A stretch of DNA of 28,122 bases from a virus: the UHGV virus genome UHGV-1710763; one strand, written 5' to 3'. Shown one piece after another: positions 611-18,367 of the stretch. The notes below the pieces were generated by a model. It made no database searches. It saw only the letters and a program-made list of their open reading frames with translations, and had not been told where the DNA came from. Made by a program: the position numbers and the translations under genes. The first letter of the stretch is position 1; each line of letters opens with the position of its first letter.

Positions 611-632
611 AGCCCCTCATAGGGGCTTTTTT
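611..632 (+). terminator. Rho-independent terminator
   Basis: Stem AGCCCCT / AGGGGCT with a 3-nt loop followed by TTTTTT; a second GGGGCT-AAAT-AGCCCC hairpin lies at 583-598. Confidence 0.6.
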
Positions 633-1095
633 ACGTCTATCCAATCCTTATACAATCCCTTTCCCTCACCTTTCCAGAATCTTATCAGACCTTAAAAGCA
701 ATAACTCTATAGTCTACGCTATAACCTCTTATCAAATCAACTTAAATATAAGCCCATAACCCGAAAGGGAAGGGCAACCGTTTAAACGCTCTATAAAGCT
801 CTATAACAGCCTTATCAACCTAACTTAAGGGATTGCATTAACTCACCCTAAAAAGCCCTTTATAAAGCTTCCCAGAGACTTAAAAGAATCTTATAAGGGT
901 GTAAGCTTTATCGTCTCGTTAGTATTCTTGTGAATATCTAAAAAGGCTTGATAGTGTCTAAAAAGTATGTTATAGGGGCTATAAAGTTACTTTGAAGTAG
1001 CTTAAAAGTTACGTAAAAGAGGCTATAAAGTTACGTAAATGCTAGCCCCCTTAACATTTTCTTAACAATTTCTTAACAATCCCTACATAGTTATG

Positions 1096-1620
1096 CTTTT
1101 AAGGCACTTGTTAGCAACTTGTTAAATCTCTGTTAAGACCACGTAAAAGCCTTGTAAGAGTCTTTGACATAGCCTTAAAAGCTCCTGTAAAGCCCTATAA
1201 AGAGTTATCTGTACAGTTGAGGGGTAAATACTAGGAAGAGACTTAAAAGAGGCTATAAAGAGCTATAGAGGGCTTTTAAGAGGTATGTTTAAAGAATCAC
1301 TAAGAAGCAAAGGGAACGATAAGAAAAGAGATAGTGACCATGTTAATAGCTTGATAAAAAGATTAAACACTTGTTAGAAACTTGTTAATTATCTTAACAA
1401 AATAACTCTTAACATTTAACTACTTAGCCCTTGTTAGTCATTTGTTTAGATTCTGTAAAGCCTATTCAGCACTTGTTAGAAAACTGTTACGCCCTTGTTA
1501 GTTCTGTTAAGAATCTGTTAAGACCTTTGAAGAGTTGTTAAGAAGATGTGAGAACTGTTAAGAGATTGTTAAGGATATTTTAAAATTTTGCAAAGTACTT
1601 GTAAGGGAGCTGTTAAGGGC
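1096..1620. repeat. array of CTTGTTAG / CTGTTAAG / TTGTTAAG octamers (15 or more copies, irregular spacing)
   Basis: For example acttgttagcaacttgttaaatctctgttaag (1107-1137) and cttgttagttctgttaagaatctgttaagacc (1493-1525). Confidence 0.65.
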
Positions 1621-1985
1621 TACCAAGCAGATATACATCATGAGGTAGATTCTACCGAATCAACTAGACAGATATTTTTGAGTTCCTTCAAAGACCCTAA
1701 AAAATGACTTGACAGTCCTATTTTATAAAAATTTTAAGATTCTGAATAATTACCTATACAGTCTTTTAAAAATACAGGTAGAAACAGGCTTATAAGATAC
1801 CTTGTTAGTACCGTGTTAGACCTTGTGAGATAAGGTCTGTAAAGATATTCCTGTTAAGTTTGTTAAAACAGTCTATATAGAGGCTTAGTAGTACCTAGTG
1901 AACACCTATAGAGAGTGTCATAGCTAACCTAGAGATTAAGAGGTGTATAGGAGCTTCTAAGAGGGTATAGAGAGATGGTTAAGAT

Positions 1986-2213: not shown

Positions 2214-2238
2214 TAAAAAGCCCCCAATTAAGGAGGCT
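2214..2238 (-). terminator. Rho-independent terminator ending the leftward operon
   Basis: Minus-strand reading AGCCTCC-TTAATT-GGGGGCT followed by TTTTT, 12 nt past the stop of the 2250..2468 gene. Confidence 0.55.
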
Positions 2239-2249
2239 CTTAAGATATT

Positions 2250-2468
2250 TTAAATCAGTGTTTCCAGAACTGTTTTCAATGATGACTTGGTTGTCTGATA
2301 AAAATGAGTGAACCCATTATTGTTATCGAATATCTGCATCATGATATCATCTCCCTTGATTGGGTACACTACACCAGTGGTGTCAACATCAAAGACCTTC
2401 ACAGAAGTAAGTGGTTTCTTTGTTTTAGAGCAGTAAACTGTCAATCTTTTACCAATAAGCTCTTTCAT
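2250..2468 (-). CDS. hypothetical protein (72 aa)
   Basis: ORF-track ORF, last gene of the leftward operon. Confidence 0.5.
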   Translation of the reverse strand: MKELIGKRLTVYCSKTKKPLTSVKVFDVDTTGVVYPIKGDDIMMQIFDNNNGFTHFYQTTKSSLKTVLETLI

Positions 2469-5664: not shown

Positions 5665-6129
5665 TTACTTTGGGTATACACTGTCAAGATAAATGTCAGC
5701 TTCCATTCTACGTCTGTTTTTCAGGCCGTTTGAAGTGACCTTCTGACCTTTGACTGTAACCTTGTTCCACCACTGCATAGCTTCTGCACAACCTACCTTA
5801 TTACCAGCGTTGTGGCGCTTGATAAATGTAGAGTCCTGCATAGCTGTGATACCAATGTTGTATGTTTCACTTACAAGTGCATCAAACTCGTTCTGAGAAG
5901 TTGGAACCTTGATAGCTTTGTTCACTGCTGCAACGAACTTTTCAACATCTGCGAGAAGATACTGTTCAGCTTGTTCAGCGGTAATCTTCATACCCATCTT
6001 AACAGGCTTCCCACCAATACGAATTGTCCCATACCCAATTGTGGGGATTCCAGCAGAATCTTCGTAAGCCTCAAGCTTAAGACCTTCAAAGAACTTAATA
6101 GCTTCTAATCCTTTTCTTGAGAGTTGCAT
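5665..6129 (-). CDS. phage lysozyme / endolysin, glycoside hydrolase family 24 (T4 e / lambda R type)
   Basis: Translation carries the GH24 signature FEGLKLEAYEDSAGIPTIGYG (catalytic Glu, Asp, Thr spacing); size of 154 aa is typical. Confidence 0.8.
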   Translation of the reverse strand: MQLSRKGLEAIKFFEGLKLEAYEDSAGIPTIGYGTIRIGGKPVKMGMKITAEQAEQYLLADVEKFVAAVNKAIKVPTSQNEFDALVSETYNIGITAMQDSTFIKRHNAGNKVGCAEAMQWWNKVTVKGQKVTSNGLKNRRRMEADIYLDSVYPK

Positions 6130-7262
6130 TATGCCCCTCCTACTGGGTTAACTGTAACTGTTGCCGCATTAGATGTTACAGAGCCACCTGCACCAGTAAC
6201 TACACAAGTGTAGCTTCCTGCATCAGCAGTGGTTGCACCTTCTTTGGTGTAAGTTGCAGCAGTTGCATCGAGGATGTCTTCCTCACCTTTCTTCCACTGG
6301 TAACCTGTTGCACCTGTTGCCACAACATTCAGTGTTAAAGTCTCACCTTCAGTGATTTCTTGATTGGTTGGCTGTTGAGTGACTACCGGAAGTGCGTTAA
6401 CAATAACCGTTGCAGGGCTAGAAGTGACAGAACCACCTGCACCTGTTACAACGCAAGTGTATGAACCTGCATCTGCTGGCAGAGCACCAGACTTGCTATA
6501 GGTAGCATTTGTCGCTGAAGGAATGTCAGAGCCATCTTTCTTCCATTGGTAACCAGTTGCACCAGTTGCAGTAACTGCTAAGTTGATGTTTCCACCTTCA
6601 TTAATAGTCTGGTTAGAAGGTTGCTTGGTAATCACAGGTAGTGCGTTCACAGTCACTGTTGCTGCATCTGAGGTAACACTTGTTCCACCCTCTCCAGATA
6701 CAACACAAGTGTATGAACCAGCGTCAGAAGGTGCTACTGACTGTTTTGTGTAAGTTGCAGAATTGGCACTAGGGATATCCTCACCATCCTTCTTCCACTG
6801 ATATCCAGTGGCGTTAGTTGCTAGAATGCTTAGAGTAAGTGTGCCACCCTCATTGACTGTTTGACCTGTTGGTTGCTGAGTAATTGCTGGTGGCTTAATA
6901 GCATCCTTCAACTTAGCATTCAACATTGAGAACGGCTTAACTCTTGCCAACCATTCACAGTAAATTGTGTCAACATCTTTACCATTGATGATTGCATACT
7001 GCAAATCCATGAAGAAATCAGCAGTTCTCATCTGTGCACCAACACTGTAAAGCAATTCATCACTAAATGGAACTTTGTAGTCTGGTTTGTAGTCAAACTT
7101 CTCAACTTCTGCAATATCAGCTTCAGGCCAATATGAACTATAGGTAAGTGGTAAAATAGCCTCTTGATATGTTCTAAAATCATATCTCTTACCAGCCTTT
7201 ACATTTGCAATGAAACCCTTCACAAACTCTTTGAAGTCTGGGTAAGTCTTTGCTTTAATCAT
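6129..7262 (-). CDS. protein with an N-terminal domain of unknown function plus three tandem Ig-like (I-set type) repeats
   Basis: Three ~85-aa repeats each ending in the motif DAGSYTCVV(S/T)G and containing ATGYQWKK. Confidence 0.65.
   Translation of the reverse strand: MIKAKTYPDFKEFVKGFIANVKAGKRYDFRTYQEAILPLTYSSYWPEADIAEVEKFDYKPDYKVPFSDELLYSVGAQMRTADFFMDLQYAIINGKDVDTIYCEWLARVKPFSMLNAKLKDAIKPPAITQQPTGQTVNEGGTLTLSILATNATGYQWKKDGEDIPSANSATYTKQSVAPSDAGSYTCVVSGEGGTSVTSDAATVTVNALPVITKQPSNQTINEGGNINLAVTATGATGYQWKKDGSDIPSATNATYSKSGALPADAGSYTCVVTGAGGSVTSSPATVIVNALPVVTQQPTNQEITEGETLTLNVVATGATGYQWKKGEEDILDATAATYTKEGATTADAGSYTCVVTGAGGSVTSNAATVTVNPVGGA
6140..6900 (-). repeat. three tandem ~255-bp coding repeats (Ig-like domains) inside the 6129..7262 gene
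   Basis: Near-identical DNA blocks encoding the repeated Ig-like domain. Confidence 0.6.
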
Positions 7263-8886: not shown

Positions 8887-9258
8887 ATGAAAAACAGAAC
8901 AAACAAAGGCCAGTTTAAAAAAGGCCAGTCTGGAAACCCATCTGGAAGACCCAAAGGCTCTCGTAACAAAAGTTCACTCGTAAAAGCTCAACTGACCATT
9001 GATAATTCTGCTGAGTTTGCTGCAAAGTTGTTTGAGGCGATTGTTACAAGGGACGCTGCTAAGCTTGCAGAGTTCGGGTTAAACACAGACGACGTAACCA
9101 TCAAGAGTATGATTGAGGTCGGTAAAACTATCATGACTCACTCAGCAGGTGAGATGAAAGCCATTGCAGCAGACACTAAGAAGACTCCTGATAATGGTGG
9201 TCAACAACAGACAGATAACAAACCAACGTTCTCTGCTGTAGCGACTCTTAAAAAATAA
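8887..9258 (+). CDS. hypothetical protein with N-terminal basic GNPSGRPKGSRNK motif (possible nucleic-acid binding)
   Basis: ORF-track ORF starting at an ATG; the motif resembles basic N-termini of phage DNA-binding proteins. Confidence 0.55.
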   Translation: MKNRTNKGQFKKGQSGNPSGRPKGSRNKSSLVKAQLTIDNSAEFAAKLFEAIVTRDAAKLAEFGLNTDDVTIKSMIEVGKTIMTHSAGEMKAIAADTKKTPDNGGQQQTDNKPTFSAVATLKK

Positions 9259-9339: not shown

Positions 9340-10755
9340 ATGAGCGAATTATTTAAACATGCGCACCTTCATGCAGGTCGAACTGAAAATGGTGCTGTAA
9401 ACCATACTTCATCAATGTCTGCTCTTGTAGACTTTTACAAAGCTGCTGGTTCAAGCCGTAGCAATGTAGAAATCTTACCAGACCTGTTCTACAAAGCTTT
9501 GCGTGAGGATGTTGATGTTGCAGTTCGTATTTTACTGCATATGCGAGATGTACGAGAAGGTATGGGTGAGCGTAAAGCCTTCAGAACTGTTTTGCTTCAA
9601 GCAATTGAAGATAAAGTTTTAGAGCCTACACAGGTTCTTCGCATTATGGATAAGATTGCAGAACTTGGTCGTTTTGATGACTTCAAAATCTTCGTAGGTA
9701 CTCGTTTCGAGACAGATGCCTTCAAACATTTAGAAGCAGCATTACTAGACCCTGCAACAGCAGGTTTGGCAGCTAAGTGGTTACCACGAGTAAAACCACG
9801 TCACAAACAGTTTGTAAAACGTTTCTGCAAGTTTGCAAACTTGAGTGAGAAGGAGTATCGCACACTGTTATCTGCACTGTCTGATACGGTTGAGCAAAAA
9901 ATCTCTGCTAATGAGTTTGGTAAGATTGACTACAGTAAGATTCCTTCACTTGCTGCTGCACGTTACCAAAAACTCTTTAACCGTAAAGATGGAGAACGCT
10001 ACAAAGCTTACATTGAGTCCTTATCAAAGGGCGAGACTAAGATTAATGCTGGTGCTGTTTATCCATACGATGTGATTAAATCTGTTAAGTATGGTAATGC
10101 AGATGTTGCTAATGAGCAGTGGAAAGCACTACCAAACTGGATGGCAGAGGGTGAAAACATTCTATGTATGTCTGATGTTTCAAGTTCAATGTCTTGGGTG
10201 AATTTTGGTTCAATTACTGCTCTTGATATTGGTGTTTCACTTGCATTGTATGTAGCAGAACGTAATACAGGTTGCTTTAAGAATGAGTTGATGGTTTATT
10301 CAACAAACCCTCACTTCATTGAACTGAGTGGTGATTTACGAAACCGTCATCGTCAGGTGATGCGACACGTTGAATATGGCTCAACTAACTTACAAGCAGC
10401 TTTTGACCGTATTCTTGAGACAGGTAAAAGAAACAACTTGACTCAGAAAGATATGCCAAGTAAGCTTATCATCTTCTCCGATATGGAGTTCAATCAGGTT
10501 GATGGAGCTAACGGTCGTACAAACTTTGAAGCAATTCAGAGTAAGTACAAAAAAGCTGGATATGAGATGCCACAACTGGTATTCTGGTACTTAGCAAACC
10601 GTAATGGCACTTGCGAAGTATCTGTTAAGGATAACGGTGTAGCAATGGTATCTGGTTTCTCTCCAGCCACTTTAAAAGCTTTGCTTGGTGGTGAGAAGTT
10701 TGACCCAATCAGCGTAATGCTCAAAGCAGTAATGATTGACCGTTATATCTGGTAA
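9340..10755 (+). CDS. Ro60/TROVE-like protein: alpha-helical N-terminal region plus C-terminal vWA domain with MIDAS motif (Rsr-like)
   Basis: MIDAS DxSxS in ILCMSDVSSSMSW; C-terminal IIFSDMEF; YPYDVIKSV segment; helical N-terminus. These parallel Ro60 segments as recalled from memory (HPFHILIAL, LLAVDVSASMN, VFIVFTDNE). Confidence 0.55.
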   Translation: MSELFKHAHLHAGRTENGAVNHTSSMSALVDFYKAAGSSRSNVEILPDLFYKALREDVDVAVRILLHMRDVREGMGERKAFRTVLLQAIEDKVLEPTQVLRIMDKIAELGRFDDFKIFVGTRFETDAFKHLEAALLDPATAGLAAKWLPRVKPRHKQFVKRFCKFANLSEKEYRTLLSALSDTVEQKISANEFGKIDYSKIPSLAAARYQKLFNRKDGERYKAYIESLSKGETKINAGAVYPYDVIKSVKYGNADVANEQWKALPNWMAEGENILCMSDVSSSMSWVNFGSITALDIGVSLALYVAERNTGCFKNELMVYSTNPHFIELSGDLRNRHRQVMRHVEYGSTNLQAAFDRILETGKRNNLTQKDMPSKLIIFSDMEFNQVDGANGRTNFEAIQSKYKKAGYEMPQLVFWYLANRNGTCEVSVKDNGVAMVSGFSPATLKALLGGEKFDPISVMLKAVMIDRYIW

Positions 10756-10920: not shown

Positions 10921-10997
10921 CTCTGTTTAGCTCAGCTTGGTAGAGCGTTCCGTTTGGGGCGGTAAGGCCGGAGGTTCAAGTCCTCCAACAGAGACCA
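10921..10997 (+). tRNA. tRNA-Pro (anticodon TGG)
   Basis: Hand-folded cloverleaf: acceptor CTCTGTT / AACAGAG, D-arm GCTC..GAGC, anticodon loop TTTGGGG, T-arm GGAGG-TTCAAGT-CCTCC, encoded CCA. Confidence 0.7.
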
Positions 10998-11004
10998 AAT
11001 TAAT

Positions 11005-11082
11005 GTTCCAGTAGACAAAATGGTAAAGTCACCACTCTTTCAAAGTGGATATCTGAGGGTTCAAATCCCTTCTGGAACGCCA
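11005..11082 (+). tRNA. tRNA-Glu (anticodon TTC)
   Basis: Acceptor GTTCCAG / CTGGAAC; anticodon stem CCACT / AGTGG with loop CTTTCAA; T-loop TTCAAAT; CCA. Confidence 0.75.
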
Positions 11083-11173
11083 GTTTTGACAGAAGACCAA
11101 TTACAGCAAACTTAATCTTATTCATCTGAAGGTAAATCGGACAAAGAAGAGATTTGGTCTGGTCATTAAGAAT

Positions 11174-11250
11174 TGCGGGTATAGAGAAAGGGCGTCTCAC
11201 ATGTCTCATTAGCATGGTATCGGCAGGTTCGACTCCTGCACCCGCCTCCA
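11174..11250 (+). tRNA. tRNA with CAT anticodon (Met, fMet or Ile-lysidine; identity unresolved)
   Basis: Anticodon stem CATGT / GCATG with loop CTCATTA; T-arm GCAGG-TTCGACT-CCTGC; acceptor has a 1:72 mismatch; CCA. Confidence 0.65.
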
Positions 11251-11334
11251 AATTTACAGAAGACCGTTTACAGCAATACTTATTAAATTTTTAGCGGAAA
11301 AAATTGAAATATACGGTCTGGTAATACTAAACAT

Positions 11335-11411
11335 GGTTAGGAAGCACATAAGGTATGTGCGGTCGCCTGTTAAGCGAATGGCACAGGGTTCGAATCCCTG
11401 ACTAACCGCCA
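11335..11411 (+). tRNA. tRNA-Asn (anticodon GTT)
   Basis: Acceptor GGTTAGG / ACTAACC; D-arm GCAC..GTGC; loop CTGTTAA; T-arm CAGGG-TTCGAAT-CCCTG; CCA. Confidence 0.75.
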
Positions 11412-11480
11412 AATTTAGGAGAGAAGCAATTGCTCACCGATTTGTAAGGTGCAAGTCCTTAGCCTGAATAGAAATTAAAT

Positions 11481-11568
11481 GTGTCGTTATCCCGTAGATG
11501 GTAGCGGTGGGGACTGTAAATCCCTTGTCATTGAGACTCGGTAGGTTCGACTCCTACACGGCACACCA
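11481..11568 (+). tRNA. tRNA-Tyr (anticodon GTA), class II with long variable arm
   Basis: Acceptor GTGTCGT / ACGGCAC; anticodon stem GGGGA / TCCCT with loop CTGTAAA; ~15-nt variable arm; T-arm GTAGG-TTCGACT-CCTAC; CCA. Confidence 0.65.
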
Positions 11569-11573
11569 ATAAA

Positions 11574-11651
11574 GGTTATGTAGTTTAATTTGGTTAAAAT
11601 ACTCCCCTGTCACGGGAGATGATGAGGGTTCAAATCCCTTCGTAACCGCCA
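11574..11651 (+). tRNA. tRNA-Asp (anticodon GTC)
   Basis: Acceptor GGTTATG / CGTAACC; anticodon stem CTCCC / GGGAG with loop CTGTCAC; T-loop TTCAAAT; CCA. Confidence 0.75.
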
Positions 11652-11834
11652 ATTTTGAGAGGGCTATTTAGCCCCTCCCTTAAAGGGTTCTTACGAGTAT
11701 CCTTTAAAGGAGCAGAAGACCAAATACAGCAAGTTACTTAAAATTTCAAGCCAATTTAATTTTGAAAAATTTAAAACTTGGTCTGGCTCAACAAATTTAC
11801 AGAAGACCGTTTACAGCAAAACTTAAACAATCTA

Positions 11835-11907
11835 TTTCTCCGGTAAAGAAAAGGCGAAGGTTCGATTCCTTCACTCGGCAGATGTCGAGTTGGTGTAATG
11901 GTAGCAC
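11835..11907 (+). ncRNA. circularly permuted tRNA-like element (anticodon-like hairpin, T-arm, acceptor stem closed by an AGAT loop, D-arm); candidate Y-RNA-like tRNA mimic
   Basis: Order read directly: TTTCT-CCGGTAA-AGAAA, GAAGG-TTCGATT-CCTTC, ACTCGGC-AGAT-GTCGAGT (7 bp), TG, GTG-TAATGGTAG-CAC; no 5' acceptor partner upstream and no 3' half downstream. Confidence 0.35.
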
Positions 11908-11932
11908 TTAAGATGATAAACAACGGTCTGGT

Positions 11933-12076
11933 AATTATCTTTGTAGATAAGTTATTAAGCTTACCTGTGAGTATGCGACCACAAAGGGTGAAAGGGTAAA
12001 TTCTAGATTTAAACCTAACAAGGCACATCGCTACAGACCTTAAGCAAGTCTGGGTAGCTTATCTACAAAGATAATT
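11933..12076. repeat. perfect 18-19-bp inverted repeat flanking a ~106-bp segment (long hairpin, possible RNase III site or miniature element)
   Basis: ATTATCTTTGTAGATAAG at 11934-11951 is the exact reverse complement of CTTATCTACAAAGATAAT at 12058-12075. Confidence 0.6.
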
Positions 12077-12080
12077 TAAT

Positions 12081-12156
12081 GGAAGTGTAGCAGAATGGTG
12101 ATGCGGCAGACTTTTAATCTGACAGGCGATGGGTTCGAATCCCTCCACTTCTACCA
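12081..12156 (+). tRNA. tRNA-Lys (anticodon TTT)
   Basis: Acceptor GGAAGTG / CACTTCT; anticodon loop CTTTTAA; T-loop TTCGAAT; CCA; paralogue of the Lys(CTT) gene at 13309. Confidence 0.75.
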
Positions 12157-12161
12157 AAAAT

Positions 12162-12238
12162 GGTTCAGTCGCAGATAAGGTAATGCAAGGGTTTCATAAG
12201 CCCTATGAATGTGGGTTCGATTCCCACCTGAACCTCCA
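12162..12238 (+). tRNA. tRNA with CAT anticodon (second copy; Met / fMet / Ile2 unresolved)
   Basis: Acceptor GGTTCAG / CTGAACC perfect; anticodon stem AGGGT / GCCCT with loop TTCATAA; T-arm GTGGG-TTCGATT-CCCAC; CCA. Confidence 0.7.
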
Positions 12239-12239
12239 A

Positions 12240-12315
12240 GCTGGTATAGTTAAGAAGGTTATAACACTCCCCTGATAAGGGAACATCGGTGGTTCGATTC
12301 CACCTACCAGTACCA
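12240..12315 (+). tRNA. tRNA-Ile (anticodon GAT)
   Basis: D-arm GTTA..TAAC; anticodon loop CTGATAA; T-arm GGTGG-TTCGATT-CCACC; CCA. Confidence 0.7.
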
Positions 12316-12330
12316 ATTTCAATAAAGTTG

Positions 12331-12359
12331 TTGACATTGAGATGTGACTACTTTATAGT
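12331..12359 (+). promoter_or_regulatory. strong sigma70-like promoter inside the tRNA island (TTGACA-17-TATAGT)
   Basis: TTGACA 12331-12336, exactly 17-nt spacer, TATAGT 12354-12359, with the AATAAAGTTGTTGACA upstream context. Confidence 0.6.
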
Positions 12360-12562
12360 AACCTTAGTTTTCGTTGCGTAGCGTCTATTTTGCAAATTTA
12401 AAATAAATGCAAACGACAATGTTTTTCTGGCAGTAGCTTGATAGGCTAAACACCAGTGAGGTCTTCCAATCCCTCATCAAAGAATTTGGCGTACTAGCCC
12501 ACGGTATGATTAATAAGGTGGGCATCTTTAAGGGCTTTCTAAGAGAGTCTTTAAAGATTAAT

Positions 12563-12639
12563 GCACCCTTAGTTCAATTGGATAGAGCAACGGTCTTCTA
12601 AATCGTTAGTTACAGGTTCGAATCCTGTAGGGTGTACCA
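12563..12639 (+). tRNA. tRNA-Arg (anticodon TCT)
   Basis: Acceptor GCACCCT / AGGGTGT; D-arm GTTC..GAGC; anticodon stem ACGGT / ATCGT with loop CTTCTAA; T-arm ACAGG-TTCGAAT-CCTGT; CCA. Confidence 0.75.
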
Positions 12640-12780
12640 ATTAGTTAGCAGATTACTTAGACGACCTAAGCGGGTCTTCCTGTAGGGAGGTGGTCTGTAT
12701 CTCATGTTTTCCAGAACATGTAAATAATCTGAGAAGGGGCTTTACAGTGTTGAGATAATACGGTAAGCTTCGAATTATAG

Positions 12781-12867
12781 TATGGGACGATGTTAAGACT
12801 CTAAGGCATGAGCAACGGCTTCCAACACCGTTTCAAAGGGGTTCAACTCATCCGTCCCATGCCAAAG
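12781..12867 (+). ncRNA. unresolved tRNA-like structured element (11-bp terminal stem, 9-nt-loop hairpin with CTTCCAA, T-loop-like GGGGTTCAA, ends GCCA)
   Basis: TATGGGACGATG pairs with CATCCGTCCCATG; internal hairpin AACGG-CTTCCAACA-CCGTT; no canonical cloverleaf could be drawn. Confidence 0.3.
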
Positions 12868-12877
12868 TCTTATTAGG

Positions 12878-12965
12878 GGTAGGTAGCGGCTAATGGTAGC
12901 CAAACAGTCTTGAAAACTGTTGCCACTGTAGAGATACGGTGAGGGTTCGACTCCTTTACTTACCG
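12878..12965 (+). tRNA. tRNA-Ser (anticodon TGA), class II; CCA not encoded
   Basis: Acceptor GGTAGGT / ACTTACC; anticodon stem ACAGT / ACTGT perfect with loop CTTGAAA; long variable arm; T-loop TTCGACT. Confidence 0.6.
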
Positions 12966-13223
12966 CCTAATAAGATTTTACACCGTCCATGCTTGCTCGC
13001 ATTTTCGGTTTATCCCTCGTGTATTGTCGTACACACTGATAAAGCACCTAGTAGGTGTCACGGAGAAGAGATAATATCAAGCTCTCCAAAGGTTCTAGCC
13101 ACCGGATTAAACAAGACTATGCAAAGACCTTTTTAGGTCTTTTTAGAGGGCTTCTAAGGTTATTACAGCTTGTTGTGGAACCTTGTTGCTTAGGTTCTTA
13201 GAAGTTCTCTAAAAAGATTTAAT

Positions 13224-13301
13224 GGGAGATTGACGGTAATTGGTAAACCTACCATCCTTAGAAGTTGGTGTTTGAGGGTTCGAATCCCTTGTCTCCTACC
13301 A
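13224..13301 (+). tRNA. tRNA, anticodon provisionally TAG (Leu) on a class-I-length scaffold; identity uncertain
   Basis: Acceptor GGGAGAT / GTCTCCT (two G-U pairs); loop CTTAGAA between CCATC / GTTGG (one mismatch); T-arm GAGGG-TTCGAAT-CCCTT; CCA; D-arm irregular. Confidence 0.5.
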
Positions 13302-13308
13302 AATTAAT

Positions 13309-13384
13309 GCAGGTGTAGCAAAATGGTTATGCGGCTGACTCTTAATCAGTAAGACGATGGGTTCAATTCCCTCCACCTGTACCA
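13309..13384 (+). tRNA. tRNA-Lys (anticodon CTT)
   Basis: Acceptor GCAGGTG / CACCTGT; anticodon stem GCTGA / TCAGT with loop CTCTTAA; T-loop TTCAATT; CCA. Confidence 0.75.
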
Positions 13385-13391
13385 AACAATG

Positions 13392-13467
13392 GGGGTCATA
13401 GTTTATATGGTTAAAATTCGAGTTTTGCAAACTTGGGAACTGAGTTCAATTCTCAGTGACTCCACCA
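13392..13467 (+). tRNA. tRNA-Ala (anticodon TGC)
   Basis: Acceptor GGGGTCA / TGACTCC; anticodon stem CGAGT / ACTTG with loop TTTGCAA; T-arm CTGAG-TTCAATT-CTCAG; CCA. Confidence 0.75.
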
Positions 13468-13473
13468 ATTAGT

Positions 13474-13548
13474 GCATCCATAGTTTAAACGGGAAAATTA
13501 CAGTCTTCCAAACTGAGGTTGAGGGTTCGATTCCCTCTGGATGCTCCA
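13474..13548 (+). tRNA. tRNA-Gly (anticodon TCC)
   Basis: Acceptor GCATCCA / TGGATGC perfect; loop CTTCCAA; T-arm GAGGG-TTCGATT-CCCTC; CCA. Confidence 0.75.
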
Positions 13549-13562
13549 AATTAAGGTGTGAT

Positions 13563-13976
13563 ATGAAAATATGCAGTACTTGCAGAATACCAAAAGATGA
13601 AAGCTTATTCCATAAGAATAAGAACAAGAAAGACGGTCTTCAAAGTCAATGCAAAGATTGTGCAAGACTTCGTGATGCAAAGAGTTATCAAGCAAATGAT
13701 AAAAGGAAAGAGGCTATTAAAAGCACTCGTAACTTCAAGAGAGAGCATAACAAGACTCTAGCTAGAAGGTACAAAGCTTTATGCAAATGTCATATATGTG
13801 GTGAGAAAGAACCAGTTGCACTGGATTTACACCATACAGACCCTTCCCAGAAAGATTTGAATCCTGCATCACTTTATTCATACTCCACAAAAAGATTAAA
13901 AGATGAAATCAGAAAGTGCATTGTCTTGTGCGCTAACTGTCACAGAAAAGTACATGCTGGTATCATAAAAGTTTAA
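13563..13976 (+). CDS. HNH family endonuclease (free-standing homing-endonuclease-like gene)
   Basis: Cys pairs CKDC and CKCHIC plus an HNH core (LDLHHTD ... N ... CANCHRKVH) in the translation; sits between tRNA-Gly and tRNA-Thr. Confidence 0.7.
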   Translation: MKICSTCRIPKDESLFHKNKNKKDGLQSQCKDCARLRDAKSYQANDKRKEAIKSTRNFKREHNKTLARRYKALCKCHICGEKEPVALDLHHTDPSQKDLNPASLYSYSTKRLKDEIRKCIVLCANCHRKVHAGIIKV

Positions 13977-13977
13977 T

Positions 13978-14054
13978 GCTGCTTTCGTATAATTGGCTAT
14001 TACACATCCCTTGTAAGGATGGAAATGCAGGTTCGAGTCCTGTGAGCAGCACCA
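13978..14054 (+). tRNA. tRNA-Thr (anticodon TGT)
   Basis: Acceptor GCTGCTT / GAGCAGC; anticodon stem CATCC / GGATG perfect with loop CTTGTAA; T-loop TTCGAGT; CCA; starts 2 nt after the HNH stop codon. Confidence 0.8.
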
Positions 14055-14149
14055 ATTCAGAGGTCAAGTGAAAGACCGCTGGTGTCAACTGAAGACCGTA
14101 ACAAATTCCACGGAGTTGAGTTAGCGGCACAACTTCAGACCTCTTTCAT

Positions 14150-14224
14150 ACTCGCTTAGTTTATATGGTAAAACATCACCCTTACAAGATGAAGAGAAAG
14201 GTTCAAGCCCTTTAGTGAGTACCA
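14150..14224 (+). tRNA. tRNA-Val (anticodon TAC)
   Basis: Acceptor ACTCGCT / AGTGAGT; D-arm GTTT..AAAC; loop CTTACAA; T-arm AAAGG-TTCAAGC-CCTTT; CCA. Confidence 0.65.
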
Positions 14225-14225
14225 T

Positions 14226-14303
14226 GTTCCAGTATCCCAATTGGCAGAGGATGCAAGCTCAAACCTTGTACTAGTGACGGTTCGAATCCGTCTTGGAACA
14301 CCA
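14226..14303 (+). tRNA. tRNA with CAA anticodon (Leu-type) but only a 6-nt variable region
   Basis: Acceptor GTTCCAG / TTGGAAC; anticodon stem GCAAG / CTTGT with loop CTCAAAC; T-arm GACGG-TTCGAAT-CCGTC; A73; CCA. Confidence 0.6.
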
Positions 14304-14308
14304 ATTTT

Positions 14309-14384
14309 GCAGGATTAGTTCAAATGGATAGAGCAACAGTCTACGAAGCTGTTAATAGGGGTTCGAATCCCTTATCCTGCGCCA
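14309..14384 (+). tRNA. tRNA-Arg (anticodon ACG)
   Basis: Acceptor GCAGGAT / ATCCTGC perfect; D-arm GTTC..GAGC; anticodon stem ACAGT / GCTGT with loop CTACGAA; T-loop TTCGAAT; CCA. Confidence 0.8.
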
Positions 14385-14403
14385 ATTTAAAGAGGCTATT
14401 TAG

Positions 14404-14961
14404 ATGAGATATTTGAAGTATGCTTCATGGATTTTCTTAGCTTTGTTAGAGCCATTTGCAGCAATCTTAGCAGTTATCTTAGCACCTTTTGTAGTTCCAT
14501 TCTACAGTGAGAAGAAAGGACACTTACCTTTCGGATTCAGATGGATGGAGACATATGACAACCCAATTGATGGTGATGAAGGTCACGTTAAAAGATGGGC
14601 TAATATTAGATGGATTGGTAAACTAGGTGTCTACATGCAAAGAGTCGGATGGCTCTGGAGAAACAAAGCTTATAACTTCTCTTACCATGTATTAGGAAGA
14701 GATGTAAAAGATGTTACTAAGTGGAAAGGTAATATCAACGTAAGTTCTAACCCTGAAGATAATCAGACAGGTTATCTCCTAATGTGGAACAGCAATGCTT
14801 GGGGATTATTCGCTTTTATCCCATCAATTAAAATCTTTGGTAAACAGTTCTACTGGAGAATTTATATTGGGTGGAAGCTAAAAAGTGTTGTCCCAGAAGA
14901 AAGAGCATTCTCAAGGGAAAGAGTTATGTTGGCATTCTTTATTCATCCACTAAGAAAGTAA
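14404..14961 (+). CDS. hypothetical membrane protein (hydrophobic N-terminus, Trp-rich)
   Basis: ORF-track ORF; N-terminal hydrophobic stretch WIFLALLEPFAAILAVILAPFVV; embedded between tRNA genes. Confidence 0.55.
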   Translation: MRYLKYASWIFLALLEPFAAILAVILAPFVVPFYSEKKGHLPFGFRWMETYDNPIDGDEGHVKRWANIRWIGKLGVYMQRVGWLWRNKAYNFSYHVLGRDVKDVTKWKGNINVSSNPEDNQTGYLLMWNSNAWGLFAFIPSIKIFGKQFYWRIYIGWKLKSVVPEERAFSRERVMLAFFIHPLRK

Positions 14962-14969
14962 AGATTTAA

Positions 14970-15045
14970 AGGGGATTAGTTTACAAGGTTAAAACCTCGG
15001 TCTTTGAAATCGAAGAAGTTGGTTCAATTCCAACATCCCCCGCCA
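14970..15045 (+). tRNA. tRNA-Gln (anticodon TTG)
   Basis: D-arm GTTT..AAAC; anticodon stem TCGGT / ATCGA with loop CTTTGAA; T-arm GTTGG-TTCAATT-CCAAC; weak 1:72 pair; CCA. Confidence 0.7.
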
Positions 15046-15047
15046 AT

Positions 15048-15126
15048 GCTCCATTACTCCAATTGGCAGAGAGGCCAGACTTAAAATCTGTGTTATGTAT
15101 CGGTTCGAATCCGATATGGAGTACCA
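15048..15126 (+). tRNA. tRNA with TAA anticodon (Leu-type) but only a 7-nt variable region
   Basis: Acceptor GCTCCAT / ATGGAGT; anticodon loop CTTAAAA; T-arm ATCGG-TTCGAAT-CCGAT; A73; CCA. Confidence 0.6.
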
Positions 15127-15131
15127 AATTT

Positions 15132-15207
15132 AGCGGTATAGCATAACTGGCAATGCAACAGTCTCTGAAGCTGTCTTATTAAGGTTCAAATCCTTATGCC
15201 GCTGCCA
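15132..15207 (+). tRNA. tRNA-Gln (anticodon CTG)
   Basis: Acceptor AGCGGTA / TGCCGCT; anticodon stem ACAGT / GCTGT with loop CTCTGAA; T-arm TAAGG-TTCAAAT-CCTTA; CCA. Confidence 0.7.
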
Positions 15208-15238
15208 CTTCTAAGGGTTCTTACGAGAGTCCTTAAAT

Positions 15239-15314
15239 GTGGCCTTATCATAAATGGTAATGACCCATGCTGTGAACATGGTCTATACGGGTTCAAATCC
15301 CGTAGGTCACCCCA
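15239..15314 (+). tRNA. tRNA-His (anticodon GTG)
   Basis: Acceptor GTGGCCT / AGGTCAC; D-arm TCAT..ATGA; anticodon stem CCATG / CATGG perfect with loop CTGTGAA; C73 discriminator; CCA. Confidence 0.75.
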
Positions 15315-15321
15315 ATTTATA

Positions 15322-15396
15322 GTCCAAGTAGCTTATATGGTTAAAGCGCGTGTCTGAAAAACATGAGAAGAGGGTTCAAATCCCACTGGACTACCA
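15322..15396 (+). tRNA. tRNA-Phe (anticodon GAA); acceptor register ambiguous
   Basis: D-arm GCTT..AAGC; anticodon stem CGTGT / ACATG with loop CTGAAAA; T-loop TTCAAAT; ends ACCA. Confidence 0.65.
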
Positions 15397-15412
15397 ATTT
15401 CAAAGGTGCTTA

Positions 15413-16147
15413 ATGAAAGAGATGACAGAACAAGGTAAGGAGATTTTTAATCTCTTAAAAACCGGTAAAGGGTTTTCTAACCCACTTATTACTGGTGCAG
15501 CAGTTCTCGGTGGAACCGTAGCTGCCTCTACATCACTTGTAAGCTCTATTAGCTCTGTAACAGACCCTACAACGAAGGAGAAACTTGTTGCTGCTGGACT
15601 TACAACAGTTCTTCTAAACAGCTTTACAACAAGCCTGACAAGCACTACAGCAACTACTAAGACCCTAACAGACTACGGTCAAAAGTCTATTGATGAGTTT
15701 TCATCACGTATGCAGGTGGCAAAGGGATATTCCAATGTTATGGGTGCAGCAGGAGAACAAGTTGGTTGTACACCATTCAGTGGTATTATGGGTGTTGCTA
15801 CAGAGTATGGTCAGCAAGCTATTGACATGATTAACAGCACACTAGACAGTGTTAACGGTGTGTTAAGTGACTTACAAGATGCTATTGACAAGGGTCTTGA
15901 TACTGTTTCTGATTTAGCTAACCAAGCTGTAAGTAAGATTAATGAAGGTATTTCAAAGATTACAGCTTATGCAGATGAAGTTGTGCAGATGATTGAAGAA
16001 GAAGCTGCCCTTATTGCAGAGTACCTTAAAACGAATATCAATGGGTTCTTAGCAGGTATCTTACCAGACTGGTTTGATGATGCCTGTAAAACTGGTGTAA
16101 TTGACACTATTGCAACACCAGAAATGAAGAACGCATTACAGAAATAA
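15413..16147 (+). CDS. hypothetical Ser/Thr-rich protein; start moved downstream of the track ORF (15350) to the first ATG clear of tRNA-Phe
   Basis: Track ORF 15350..16147 overlaps the tRNA at 15322-15396; the in-frame ATG at 15413 has AAAGGTG upstream. Confidence 0.55.
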   Translation: MKEMTEQGKEIFNLLKTGKGFSNPLITGAAVLGGTVAASTSLVSSISSVTDPTTKEKLVAAGLTTVLLNSFTTSLTSTTATTKTLTDYGQKSIDEFSSRMQVAKGYSNVMGAAGEQVGCTPFSGIMGVATEYGQQAIDMINSTLDSVNGVLSDLQDAIDKGLDTVSDLANQAVSKINEGISKITAYADEVVQMIEEEAALIAEYLKTNINGFLAGILPDWFDDACKTGVIDTIATPEMKNALQK

Positions 16148-16148
16148 T

Positions 16149-16241
16149 GGAAGATTAACCCTAAAAGGTAAGGGAGCAGTTTGCTAAACTGCCAGTAGCT
16201 GAGAAATCGGTGTACCAGTTCAAGTCTGGTATCTTCCTCCA
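16149..16241 (+). tRNA. tRNA-Ser (anticodon GCT), class II with long variable arm
   Basis: Acceptor GGAAGAT / ATCTTCC perfect; anticodon stem GCAGT / ACTGC perfect with loop TTGCTAA; ~20-nt variable arm; T-arm ACCAG-TTCAAGT-CTGGT; CCA. Confidence 0.8.
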
Positions 16242-16245
16242 ATTT

Positions 16246-16321
16246 GAATCCGTGACAGAAATGGCTATGTGCCTGTCTGCAAAACAGGTTTATAAGGGTT
16301 CGAGTCCCTTCGGATTCTCCA
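16246..16321 (+). tRNA. tRNA-Cys (anticodon GCA)
   Basis: Acceptor GAATCCG / CGGATTC perfect; anticodon stem CCTGT / ACAGG perfect with loop CTGCAAA; T-arm AAGGG-TTCGAGT-CCCTT; CCA. Confidence 0.8.
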
Positions 16322-16543: not shown

Positions 16544-16744
16544 ATGAGCGAGACCGTTTATAAAGAACTTTATGAAGCTAATAAGAAGCTAGAATTTATG
16601 CAGAATACTATCATGGCAATTGCAGACAGATTGTCTGTAGCAACAGGTATTGATATTAAAGAAGCATCTATGGATGCACTTCTTGATGCTGTTGATGCAA
16701 AGTTCGAAGTTAAGAAAGAAGAGACTGCTACAGACTCTGAATAA
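16544..16744 (+). CDS. hypothetical protein (66 aa) immediately upstream of the large terminase
   Basis: ORF-track ORF; GGAG ribosome-binding site upstream; position is typical of a small packaging protein but nothing in the sequence confirms that. Confidence 0.45.
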   Translation: MSETVYKELYEANKKLEFMQNTIMAIADRLSVATGIDIKEASMDALLDAVDAKFEVKKEETATDSE

Positions 16745-16765
16745 TTCTATTTGCGGAGGCGCTTA

Positions 16766-18367
16766 ATGGACTTAAATGCTGTTAAGCAGAAGCGAGTGGA
16801 AGATGTTAGGAAAGTCCTAGCTGGAGAGTTGGGGCTTTCTGATGAAGTAAAAGAAATTATCAAATCATTCGGTAAAGACCCCTCTAAATTCCTTCCAACT
16901 CAAATTCTGACTTTATTAAGATACACACCAGACCAAGTTAGACTTATCTTCAAATTGATGACTGATAAGAACTATGTAGCCCCTCAGCCGGGTTCTCAAG
17001 AGGTCTTTTTAAATACTAATGCTGACTTGGTTCTCTATGGTGGTGCTGCTGGTGCTGGTAAAACTGCTGCATTGTTAATGGACTCTTTAAGATTTATTGA
17101 AGACCCTAACTATAATGCTGTATATTTCCGTCGAAATACAACACAGCTACAAGGTGGTTTATGGCCTGCTGCAAAGAAACTATTTGGTAAGTTTGGTGGG
17201 ATTCCTCACGAGCAGAAAATGACTATCACATTCCCTTCTGGGGCAACTATCAAGTTTACCTACCTAGAACTTGAAAAGCACGCTGAAGGTCATCAGGGTA
17301 TTGAATACTCAGCTATTTACTTTGACGAAGGTACACACTTCTCTGCTTCACAGATTTCATACCTACAAACCCGTCTACGTTCTGGTGCTGAAGGCGATTC
17401 ATACATGAAGATTTCCATGAACCCAGACAGAGACCATTTTATTTATGATTGGGTAGAACCATTCTTAGATGAAGAAGGTTATCCAGACCCTGAAAAGTGT
17501 GGTCGTATTCGTTGGTATGTAATGAACGATGGCGTGATGGTTTCTGATTGGGAGAGAGACAAGATTCTTGAAATGTTCCCTCTTGAGATTCCTCAAACAT
17601 ACACCTTCATCTCTGGTACGATTGATGATAACCCAATTCTTGACTTCTTAGAACCAAAGTATCGCGGTAAGCTTGAAACCAACACTCCTGTAAACGTTGC
17701 AAGACTTCGTTTCGGTAACTGGAAGGCTCGTGCAGAAGGTTCAAACTATTGGCAAAGACAATGGTGTGAGATTGTTGATTCACTCCCAGAAGATGTATTT
17801 GATGTTAGAGCATGGGACTTAGCAGCAACTTTACCATCTGAGATTAACCCTAATCCAGACTGGACAGCAGGTGTTAAGATGGGTAAATCTAAAAAAGACG
17901 GTTGCTATTATATCATTGATGTAGTAAGATTTAGAGATAGACCCTCTGGAGTCGAAACACAAATTAATTTGACTGCTGAAAGTGACGGTAAGCGAACTGG
18001 TATTTTTATCCCTCAAGACCCAGGCGCTGCTGGTAAATCCTACGCAACATCCCTCATCAGGAAACTTGCCGAGAAAGGCTATCGTGCAAGAGCTAAACCA
18101 ACAAATAAAGATAAAGTTACCCGCTTTGCGGGATTTTCTGCTGCTTCTGAAGCTGGACTTGTAAAAGTCTTGAGAGGTAGTTGGAATGAAGCTTACTTTC
18201 AAGAGCTTGAAGGCTTTTGTGGTGACGGCAAAACTAAAGATGACCAAGTGGATGCTACCAGTGATGCTTTCAACAGTCTGAACGAAGTTAAATTATTCAA
18301 GCCACCATCAATGGGTGCTCACACAGACTTAGTGAGAGGAAACCCATATGAGGGGCTTAGACGTTGA
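16766..18367 (+). CDS. terminase large subunit
   Basis: Walker A motif GGAAGAGKT in LVLYGGAAGAGKTAALL; ~530 aa; track ORF starts at a TTG at 16751, so the ATG at 16766 with GGAGG 5 nt upstream is preferred. Confidence 0.8.
   Translation: MDLNAVKQKRVEDVRKVLAGELGLSDEVKEIIKSFGKDPSKFLPTQILTLLRYTPDQVRLIFKLMTDKNYVAPQPGSQEVFLNTNADLVLYGGAAGAGKTAALLMDSLRFIEDPNYNAVYFRRNTTQLQGGLWPAAKKLFGKFGGIPHEQKMTITFPSGATIKFTYLELEKHAEGHQGIEYSAIYFDEGTHFSASQISYLQTRLRSGAEGDSYMKISMNPDRDHFIYDWVEPFLDEEGYPDPEKCGRIRWYVMNDGVMVSDWERDKILEMFPLEIPQTYTFISGTIDDNPILDFLEPKYRGKLETNTPVNVARLRFGNWKARAEGSNYWQRQWCEIVDSLPEDVFDVRAWDLAATLPSEINPNPDWTAGVKMGKSKKDGCYYIIDVVRFRDRPSGVETQINLTAESDGKRTGIFIPQDPGAAGKSYATSLIRKLAEKGYRARAKPTNKDKVTRFAGFSAASEAGLVKVLRGSWNEAYFQELEGFCGDGKTKDDQVDATSDAFNSLNEVKLFKPPSMGAHTDLVRGNPYEGLRR

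Follow-up and report, generated by a model that had tools for sequence, protein, structure and literature searches.

What does a dense array of short, phased repeats do in a stretch of phage DNA without recognisable genes? The question is raised by positions 1096-1620 of UHGV virus genome UHGV-1710763, of which 28,122 nucleotides on one strand were analysed here and are hereafter called the window. A sequence-only reading of the window had singled out this interval as an array of the octamers CTTGTTAG and CTGTTAAG, and had proposed that it represents clustered binding sites for a regulator, or else a partition (parS-like) or pac-like site, rather than coding sequence. Our answer has two parts. 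Judged by homology, the array almost certainly fills the direct terminal repeat (DTR; 1045-1624) of a Felix O1-like phage, an element that has already been reported and annotated in close relatives. With little better than even confidence, we also suggest that the DTR and its non-coding flanks form the concatemer-junction region of the genome, in which the repeated units would serve as phased sites marking the junction for the terminase. This role of the units in protein binding and packaging is much less certain than the identity of the repeat.

The array itself is real. The plus strand of 1096-1620 holds ten exact octamers, five of them CTTGTTAG (at 1107, 1370, 1430, 1472 and 1494) and five CTGTTAAG (at 1130, 1504, 1515, 1555 and 1610), and 21 octamers when one mismatch to either is allowed, whereas shuffling these 525 bp 1000 times with dinucleotides preserved yielded on average 0.08 exact copies (maximum 2) and 1.32 copies with one mismatch (maximum 7). 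The six-nucleotide core TGTTA[AG] is present 15 times on the plus strand of the interval, as against a shuffle mean of 1.0 (maximum 5), and the rest of the window, some 26 kb, contains only about 30 further copies on the plus strand and nine on the minus. Because these counts lie far above those of the shuffles and the core is sparse elsewhere, the array is not explained by base composition, one of the two outcomes that the sequence-only reading had named as fatal to it. Spacings between units in 1096-1620 are mostly 9-12 bp and 20-22 bp, for the most part 11 bp or multiples of it; Fourier power in the array region peaks at 11.0 bp, and the unit consensus can be written as yTGTTAAGa with a period of 11 bp. 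The same Fourier analysis shows no 3-bp coding periodicity, and no open reading frame (ORF) of at least 40 amino acids occurs in 610-2249, which bears out the view that the array is non-coding.

The array is nonetheless larger and less uniform than first described. Most units do lie in direct orientation, as had been proposed, but three copies at 1050-1079 and two cores at 1394 and 1409 are inverted. Similarly, units are indeed found throughout 1096-1620, but related units with an 11-12-bp phasing, such as CTATAAAG, CTTAAAAG, CTAAAAAG and CTATAGAG, make up the whole of an ORF-free gap of 1.65 kb, from about 600 to 2250. This gap separates two converging gene blocks, each closed by a terminator-like hairpin, an arrangement annotated likewise in relatives. 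Its GC (guanine plus cytosine) content is 33.6%, compared with 39.6% elsewhere in the window.

The position of the gap within the genomes of known phages gives the first part of our answer. Its sequence matches 257 phage records, mostly at about 85-93% identity, which belong to Felix O1-like myoviruses of E. coli, Salmonella, Shigella and Citrobacter, and on this sequence evidence the window is assigned to Felixounavirus, as a Felix O1-like myovirus. At least six database records start or end exactly at window position 1045. In Pr103Blw (MW481326), bases 1-581 and the last 581 bases are annotated as a short direct terminal repeat, and a comparison showed both copies to be identical; the 581-bp DTR of this phage was found with PhageTerm (PMC8303462). 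A terminal repeat of 613 bp has been reported for Ro111lw (PMC6454146), and a DTR is annotated at bases 1-570 of Citrobacter phage HP1 (OK539913, Mooglevirus). Upon alignment, the independently reported, read-based DTRs of Pr103Blw, HP1 and Ro111lw all open at GCCCCCTTAACA (window 1045) and close at CTGTTAAGGGCTACC (window 1624), after which the next bases are AAGCAGATATACA. Window position 1624 aligns to DTR position 581 in Pr103Blw, 570 in HP1 and 613 in Ro111lw, so that the longer repeat of Ro111lw closes at the same GGGCTACC|AAGCAG junction as the other two. Among the more distant Kolesnikvirus phages of Erwinia and Salmonella, some records open at position 2167 of locus L004 and others close at about 2603-2606; these are homologous positions, and they delimit a repeat of about 440 bp.

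We conclude that the DTR of the window phage would be the 580 bp at 1045-1624 (+ strand), present in a single copy, as in a collapsed or permuted assembly. The interval 1096-1620 lies wholly within it and covers 90% of its length, and 20 of the 26 TGTTA[AG] cores in the gap fall inside it. The large terminase subunit (TerL) points to the same lineage: that of the window is 99% identical to those of many Felixounavirus records, and the papers that report DTRs cover members of this genus (PMC8303462, PMC6454146). Among the functions first put forward, a pac-like site was therefore the closest, in that the array fills a repeat whose edges are the ends of virion DNA in relatives. The term is only roughly right, however, as those relatives package short DTRs with fixed ends and do not use a headful pac site: PhageTerm classed them as DTR phages whose DNA is not permuted and has two fixed boundaries, and the circular permutation expected of headful packaging is absent from their reported packaging (PMC6454146, PMC8303462).

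The units are arranged as mirror images at the two boundaries of the repeat. At the left, the DTR opens with GCCCCC-TTAACA-N5-TTAACA-N5-TTAACA, that is, with three inverted units at exact 11-bp spacing (1050-1079, minus strand; CTTAACA on the plus strand and TGTTAAG on the minus), the first of which stands 6 nt from the terminus. All three are invariant in a three-way alignment. At the right, a long run of direct units (1430-1617, + strand) reaches the terminus, ending in an unbroken 11-nt register of TGTTAAG at 1556, TGTTAAG at 1567, TTTTAAA at 1578, TGCAAAG at 1589, TGTAAGG at 1600 and TGTTAAG at 1611. Read inward from either end, the DTR hence presents a C-rich stretch followed by TTAACA-type units in 11-bp register, three exact ones at the left and one exact and two degenerate ones at the right.

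This organisation is kept in related phages, contrary to the second outcome that would have undermined the array. The gaps of 11 relatives from Felixounavirus, Mooglevirus, Suspvirus and Kolesnikvirus each contain 18-30 plus-strand TGTTA[AG] cores, with largely similar series of spacings, and in the Arnovirus Pectobacterium phage Arno162 an equivalent gap of 1.47 kb holds TTAACA/TGTTAA arrays at weaker enrichment. In an alignment of ten genomes, unit cores are 95.8% conserved, as compared with 82.7% at other DTR columns, and 5000 random placements never attain the value observed, although alignments of repeats can flatter such figures. Kolesnikvirus provides stronger evidence of conservation than the alignment does, because its unit array persists although BLAST similarity stops beyond about 85 bp. 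The unit of the left flank does vary by genus, being TTCTAAG at the same place in Kolesnikvirus, whereas the TGTTAAG unit does not. In the literature that we found on these phages, the internal phased units, their mirror arrangement and their conservation across genera are not described, and the papers on the DTR give only its length and packaging class; the Felix O1 and wV8 genome papers, a comparative paper on Felixounavirus and a preprint on a Bas63 knockout library contain no discussion of the region.

That the units are phased and conserved fits the original notion of clustered binding sites. We infer that a protein binds them, that this protein is a component of the terminase, and that cutting would proceed as follows. 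In the concatemer, a single 580-bp segment would join two genomes. An oligomeric DNA-binding protein, most likely the recognition subunit of the phage terminase, would line up on the 11-bp units, its copies contacting the DNA from the same side; with 10.5 bp per helical turn, sites spaced by 11 bp would keep almost the same facing and drift only slowly in the left-handed sense. The junction would be marked by this binding and the nuclease brought to the two edges of the repeat, where TerL is the enzyme expected to cut. A cut at the left edge, TGCTA|GCCCCC, would produce the left end of one genome, and a cut at the right edge, GGCTACC|AAGCAG, the right end of its neighbour, the repeat being duplicated in the meantime. 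The inward-facing mirror units at the two edges would make the same complex usable at each.

Several observations weigh against this proposal. No experiment or paper within our reach reports protein binding to the units, and no small terminase gene is recognisable among the window genes scanned. Units continue for about 400-600 bp to the left and to the right of the DTR and hence cannot be equated with the repeat, and the DTR of UHGV-1710763 is itself assigned by homology to its relatives, not from reads of its own. Pseudomonas phage PaGz-1, whose TerL is 42% identical, lacks, over the first 47 kb of its record, any TGTTA cluster, any segment with strong 11-bp periodicity and any box of the type bound by the host regulator ArcA. 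To our knowledge, the analogous arrays of phage T7 have never been given a proven function.

The conserved core raises the alternative that the reader of the array is a host protein. ArcA sites consist of two or more 10-bp repeats, ATGTTAAAAA, with a conserved TGTTA core and 11 bp from centre to centre, extra repeats following at 11 or 22 bp (PMC4173790; PMC3798270), and phosphorylated ArcA (ArcA-P) can polymerise over two to five or more repeats, binding cooperatively over long stretches (PMC3798270; PMC4173790). The phage units share the TGTTA core, the 11-bp spacing between centres and the additional repeats at 11 or 22 bp with the ArcA boxes of E. coli, and they could accordingly be ArcA-P sites, with the protein acting as an architectural cofactor at the phage ends or being titrated by replicated phage DNA under low oxygen. 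Phage lambda uses IHF as such a cofactor at cos, and the Enterobacterales, hosts of all these phages, carry ArcA. A weight matrix built from 115 E. coli boxes defined by chromatin immunoprecipitation, applied at a threshold of at least 12 bits, found 12 boxes in the 580-bp DTR, where shuffles give 0.26, and four in the remaining 25.9 kb; the two highest scores in the window, 22.5 and 22.7 bits, belong to boxes formed by the 1050-1079 units, no more than 35 bp from the left terminus, and exceed the training maximum of 21.5. Each of 11 relatives has 12-15 boxes and Arno162 has nine, and the constancy of the TGTTA unit across genera in which the left-flank unit differs (Felixounavirus and Kolesnikvirus) would fit a conserved host reader. 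The match was, however, found post hoc, and it does not extend beyond the core. With cores and 11-bp spacing fixed, the other eight positions match no better than composition predicts (mean -1.4 bits, -1.7 expected, z=0.31), only the three units at 1050-1079 being excepted, and the phage units favour a G right after TGTTA(A), where the matrix disfavours it (-3.1 and -1.6 bits). The chromosomal sites are flanked by A/T-rich sequence and coincide in part with sigma-70 promoters, while the phage units number at least 20, have flanks containing G and do not lie at promoters. Felix O1-like phages, moreover, grow well in aerated laboratory cultures, which we count against a role for ArcA. Its binding requires phosphorylation (PMC4173790), and our literature search found no paper linking ArcA with these phages. 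Because core and spacing match and the flanks do not, we keep ArcA as a minority reading and consider it doubtful.

Other functions could be accommodated by a repeat-rich, non-coding locus, and we find each of them less convincing than terminase recognition. The gap might be a replication origin, with the phased units as iterons for an initiator and an AT-rich palindrome as the unwinding element. Its 1.65 kb of non-coding DNA, in which phased repeats occur by the dozen in both direct and inverted orientation, its low GC content relative to the rest of the window and the conserved AT-rich palindrome at 1577-1586 would all suit an origin, and none has been described for these phages in the literature found. 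Yet the repeat-rich core coincides with the DTR from boundary to boundary, and the DTR already accounts for a non-coding, conserved segment; no initiator-like gene was found flanking the gap, where the neighbours belong to families of unknown function, and GC skew in the window merely tracks gene orientation. An origin is unlikely on this evidence, though it could overlap with the terminal repeat. We give equally little credence to the idea that the A/T-rich phased units act through the shape of the DNA, providing a curved or easily wrapped end for spooling, for seating at the portal and tail, or for controlled ejection. The 11-12-bp periodicity does extend over all 1.6 kb and takes in flanks composed of other units, short A-tracts occur in units such as CTTAAAAG and CTAAAAAG, and the region lies at the physical ends of the DNA, but a constraint on shape alone would not hold the TGTTA core at 96% identity or fix its orientation to each terminus. 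The two remaining functions proposed at the outset, a partition centromere (parS/parC-like) and a regulator's operator array, are very improbable. The design formally resembles that of ParR/parC and TubR/tubC centromeres, which are typically built as arrays of 10-12-bp direct repeats; this is, on the other hand, a virulent myovirus, and no gene for a partition ATPase, an actin-like or tubulin-like protein, ParR or ParB was detected among the flanking genes scanned within the window, nearby ORFs matching only phage families of unknown function, an endolysin, and tail or decoration proteins. An array for a transcriptional regulator is unlikely because the gap lies between convergent terminators and sigma-70 promoter-like sites are not enriched there (nine in 300-2600, 6.1 expected, not above chance). 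The same scan led us to drop the idea of a promoter cluster or RNA polymerase sponge. For both partition and regulation, overlap with the terminal repeat explains the position of the array better.

The remaining features of the gap can be set out from left to right. A terminator-like hairpin at 611-627 (+ strand), whose counterparts in phages ASO1A and Moogle carry terminator annotations, closes the rightward gene block and forms the left border. It is followed by the left flank array (640-1044, + strand), which lies outside the DTR and consists of CTATAAAG, CTTAAAAG, CTAAAAAG and CTTATCA units in 11-bp phasing; here the autocorrelation of WAG at a distance of 11 is 5.5 times expectation. By homology, this flank would in virion DNA be the unique sequence just inside the right-end copy of the DTR. 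Two TTACGTAA palindromes (at 1009 and 1031) sit within a 22-bp direct repeat at 1009-1038, ending 6 nt short of the left DTR boundary. Beyond the inverted units at the left terminus, the DTR contains three direct units at 11-bp spacing, CTTGTTAG, CTTGTTAA and CTGTTAAG (1107-1137, + strand), then a central part of mixed A-rich units, CGTAAAAG, CTTGTAAG, CTTAAAAG, CTGTAAAG, CTATAAAG and CTTTTAAG (1140-1300, + strand), and then a cluster at 1339-1415 that combines direct TGTTA[AG] cores at 1341, 1372 and 1383 with the inverted cores at 1394 and 1409. Within the terminal run, the element GATATTTTAAAATTTTGCAAAG (1574-1595) contains the 10-bp AT-rich palindrome ATTTTAAAAT (1577-1586), and in all four genera examined a recognisable form of it, with 3-4 substitutions, lies within the DTR at about 30-50 bp from the right end. 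Directly outside the right terminus stands the conserved AAGCAGATATACA (1625-1637, + strand), which appears in Kolesnikvirus too as AAG.AGATATACA. It begins the right flank array (1625-2215, + strand), made of CTATAGAG-type units with a period of about 12 bp and holding six further TGTTA[AG] cores, at 1803, 1814, 1852, 1861, 2011 and 2136; by the same homology, this flank would be the unique sequence that directly follows the left-end copy of the DTR. A second terminator-like hairpin (2216-2241, minus strand), also annotated as a terminator in ASO1A and Moogle, closes the leftward gene block and the gap. An Rfam scan of the whole window returned only 24 transfer RNAs (tRNAs) and no RNA family in the gap.

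The genes that would supply the packaging proteins lie elsewhere in the window. TerL is encoded at 16751-18367 (+ strand; phrog_979, E=2.9e-233; Terminase_6N and Terminase_6C), and its gene is not adjacent to the array; the window also contains the portal and head genes. The 99% identity noted above holds for the TerL of many relatives. A 66-amino-acid ORF at 16544-16744, which was considered as a candidate small terminase, has no family match. Another conceivable candidate is the 123-amino-acid DUF5681 protein (8887-9258, + strand), in which an invariant basic GNPxGRPKG motif (here GNPSGRPKG) precedes two long helices, and whose gene is the first of a rightward operon that runs via the tRNAs to the large terminase. 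It has no sequence match in the PDB, its AlphaFold model (predicted local distance difference test, pLDDT, 68; predicted template modelling score, pTM, 0.37) gave no significant fold match, it is not similar to its positional counterpart in PaGz-1, and no source calls it a terminase; a function as small terminase is possible but unsupported.

We note some further features of these gene blocks. The 24 tRNA genes are clustered at 10921-16318, with an HNH endonuclease gene (13563-13976) and two ORFs of unknown function embedded among them. Directly upstream of the cluster, a 471-amino-acid protein of a PHROG "RNA-binding protein" family is encoded at 9340-10755 (+ strand); its equivalent in Bas63, gp130, is described in the Bas63 preprint as Ro60-like and as countering host defence. 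The gene that borders the gap on its right (2250-2468, minus strand) encodes 72 amino acids, as compared with about 182 in Felix O1 ORF24 and relatives. It looks like a deletion or fusion product, because its N-terminus matches phrog_7193 and its C-terminus the end of phrog_4330.

The identification has practical consequences for database records. Assemblies of such phages should have window position 1045 as their first base and show the 580-bp repeat at either end, and many records do not. Many Felixounavirus records have been opened at arbitrary points, and some (ph2-2, Michonne and FM4b) annotate small "hypothetical protein" ORFs over the array; these ORFs are spurious. A 147-kb record labelled Staphylococcus phage SA1 (GU169904) contains a Felix O1-type region at 88% identity, and the presence of such a region under a Staphylococcus label suggests that it is a mixed or chimeric assembly. 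More broadly, the way in which fixed-end packaging recognises both edges of the repeat and duplicates it is poorly understood outside T7. The region described here offers a compact, conserved and easily mutated substrate, with at least 20 phased units arranged as mirror images at two mapped cut sites and kept in at least four genera, and the proposal is testable in a phage group that is widely used for the typing and biocontrol of Salmonella and E. coli. The match to ArcA is a cheap hypothesis that would be of wider interest if it held: were it true, it would couple phage DNA maturation or host metabolism to the oxygen status of the gut.

Among known systems, the closest are the short DTRs of the Ounavirinae Pr103Blw, Ro111lw and HP1, which share with the window a homologous sequence, identical boundary sequences, the same place between the same convergent blocks and the same internal units. 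The A-rich units also occur in another setting. The Felix O1 paper describes 57-bp direct repeats containing CTTAAAAG and CTGTAAAG between genes 15/16 and 19/20, outside the window, and we observe that these are embedded in an apparent TTTACA-N17-TAAAGT promoter; the A-rich units may have a second role at early promoters. Beyond this group, a scan of 2.9 million viral contigs for TGTTAAG-N3-5-TGTTAAG gave mostly single chance matches. It also returned an unrelated phage contig (L022, IMGVR_UViG_3300021255_002554), which at 5700-6500 has a genuine array in a non-coding stretch, with about 20 units phased at 11 bp, alternating CTGTTAAG with TGTAAAC/GGTAAAC and followed by a strong promoter-like site. 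The terminase of this contig resembles those of Firmicute phages, being closest to those of Geobacillus and Bacillus phages, and we regard the match as a by-product of having searched for this very motif.

In some other packaging systems, short repeated elements beside the cut site are bound by the small terminase, as at the R sites of lambda cosB, which have an IHF site, and at the P1 pac hexamer clusters that flank the cut, and a host DNA-bending protein can assist. Those systems produce cohesive ends or package by the headful and use 3-7 elements, whereas the window has at least 20 units over a 580-bp repeat with two cut sites. The design of T7 is nearer. Its genome likewise has fixed ends and a short non-coding DTR, and direct inspection of bases 1-480 and 39530-39937 showed that CCTAAAG heptamers recur at intervals of 12-13 bp within the 160-bp repeat as well as in its two flanks; these short-repeat arrays are said to have been named SRL and SRR by Dunn and Studier in 1983. 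T7 and the window have in common a 7-8-bp A-rich unit that ends in AAG and recurs every 11-13 bp or so, CCTAAAG in the former and CTGTTAAG, CTTAAAAG and CTATAAAG in the latter. They differ in that there is no sequence homology between them, that T7 is a podovirus with its own RNA polymerase, that its repeat is 160 bp and not 580 bp, and that its ends hold zero ArcA-type boxes, unlike the window DTR. By analogy, and as a likeness of design only, the locus would belong with the T7-type short-repeat arrays at genome ends: the DTR itself was already known, and the array within and around it may be best described as giving a Felix O1-like phage fixed ends in the style of T7.

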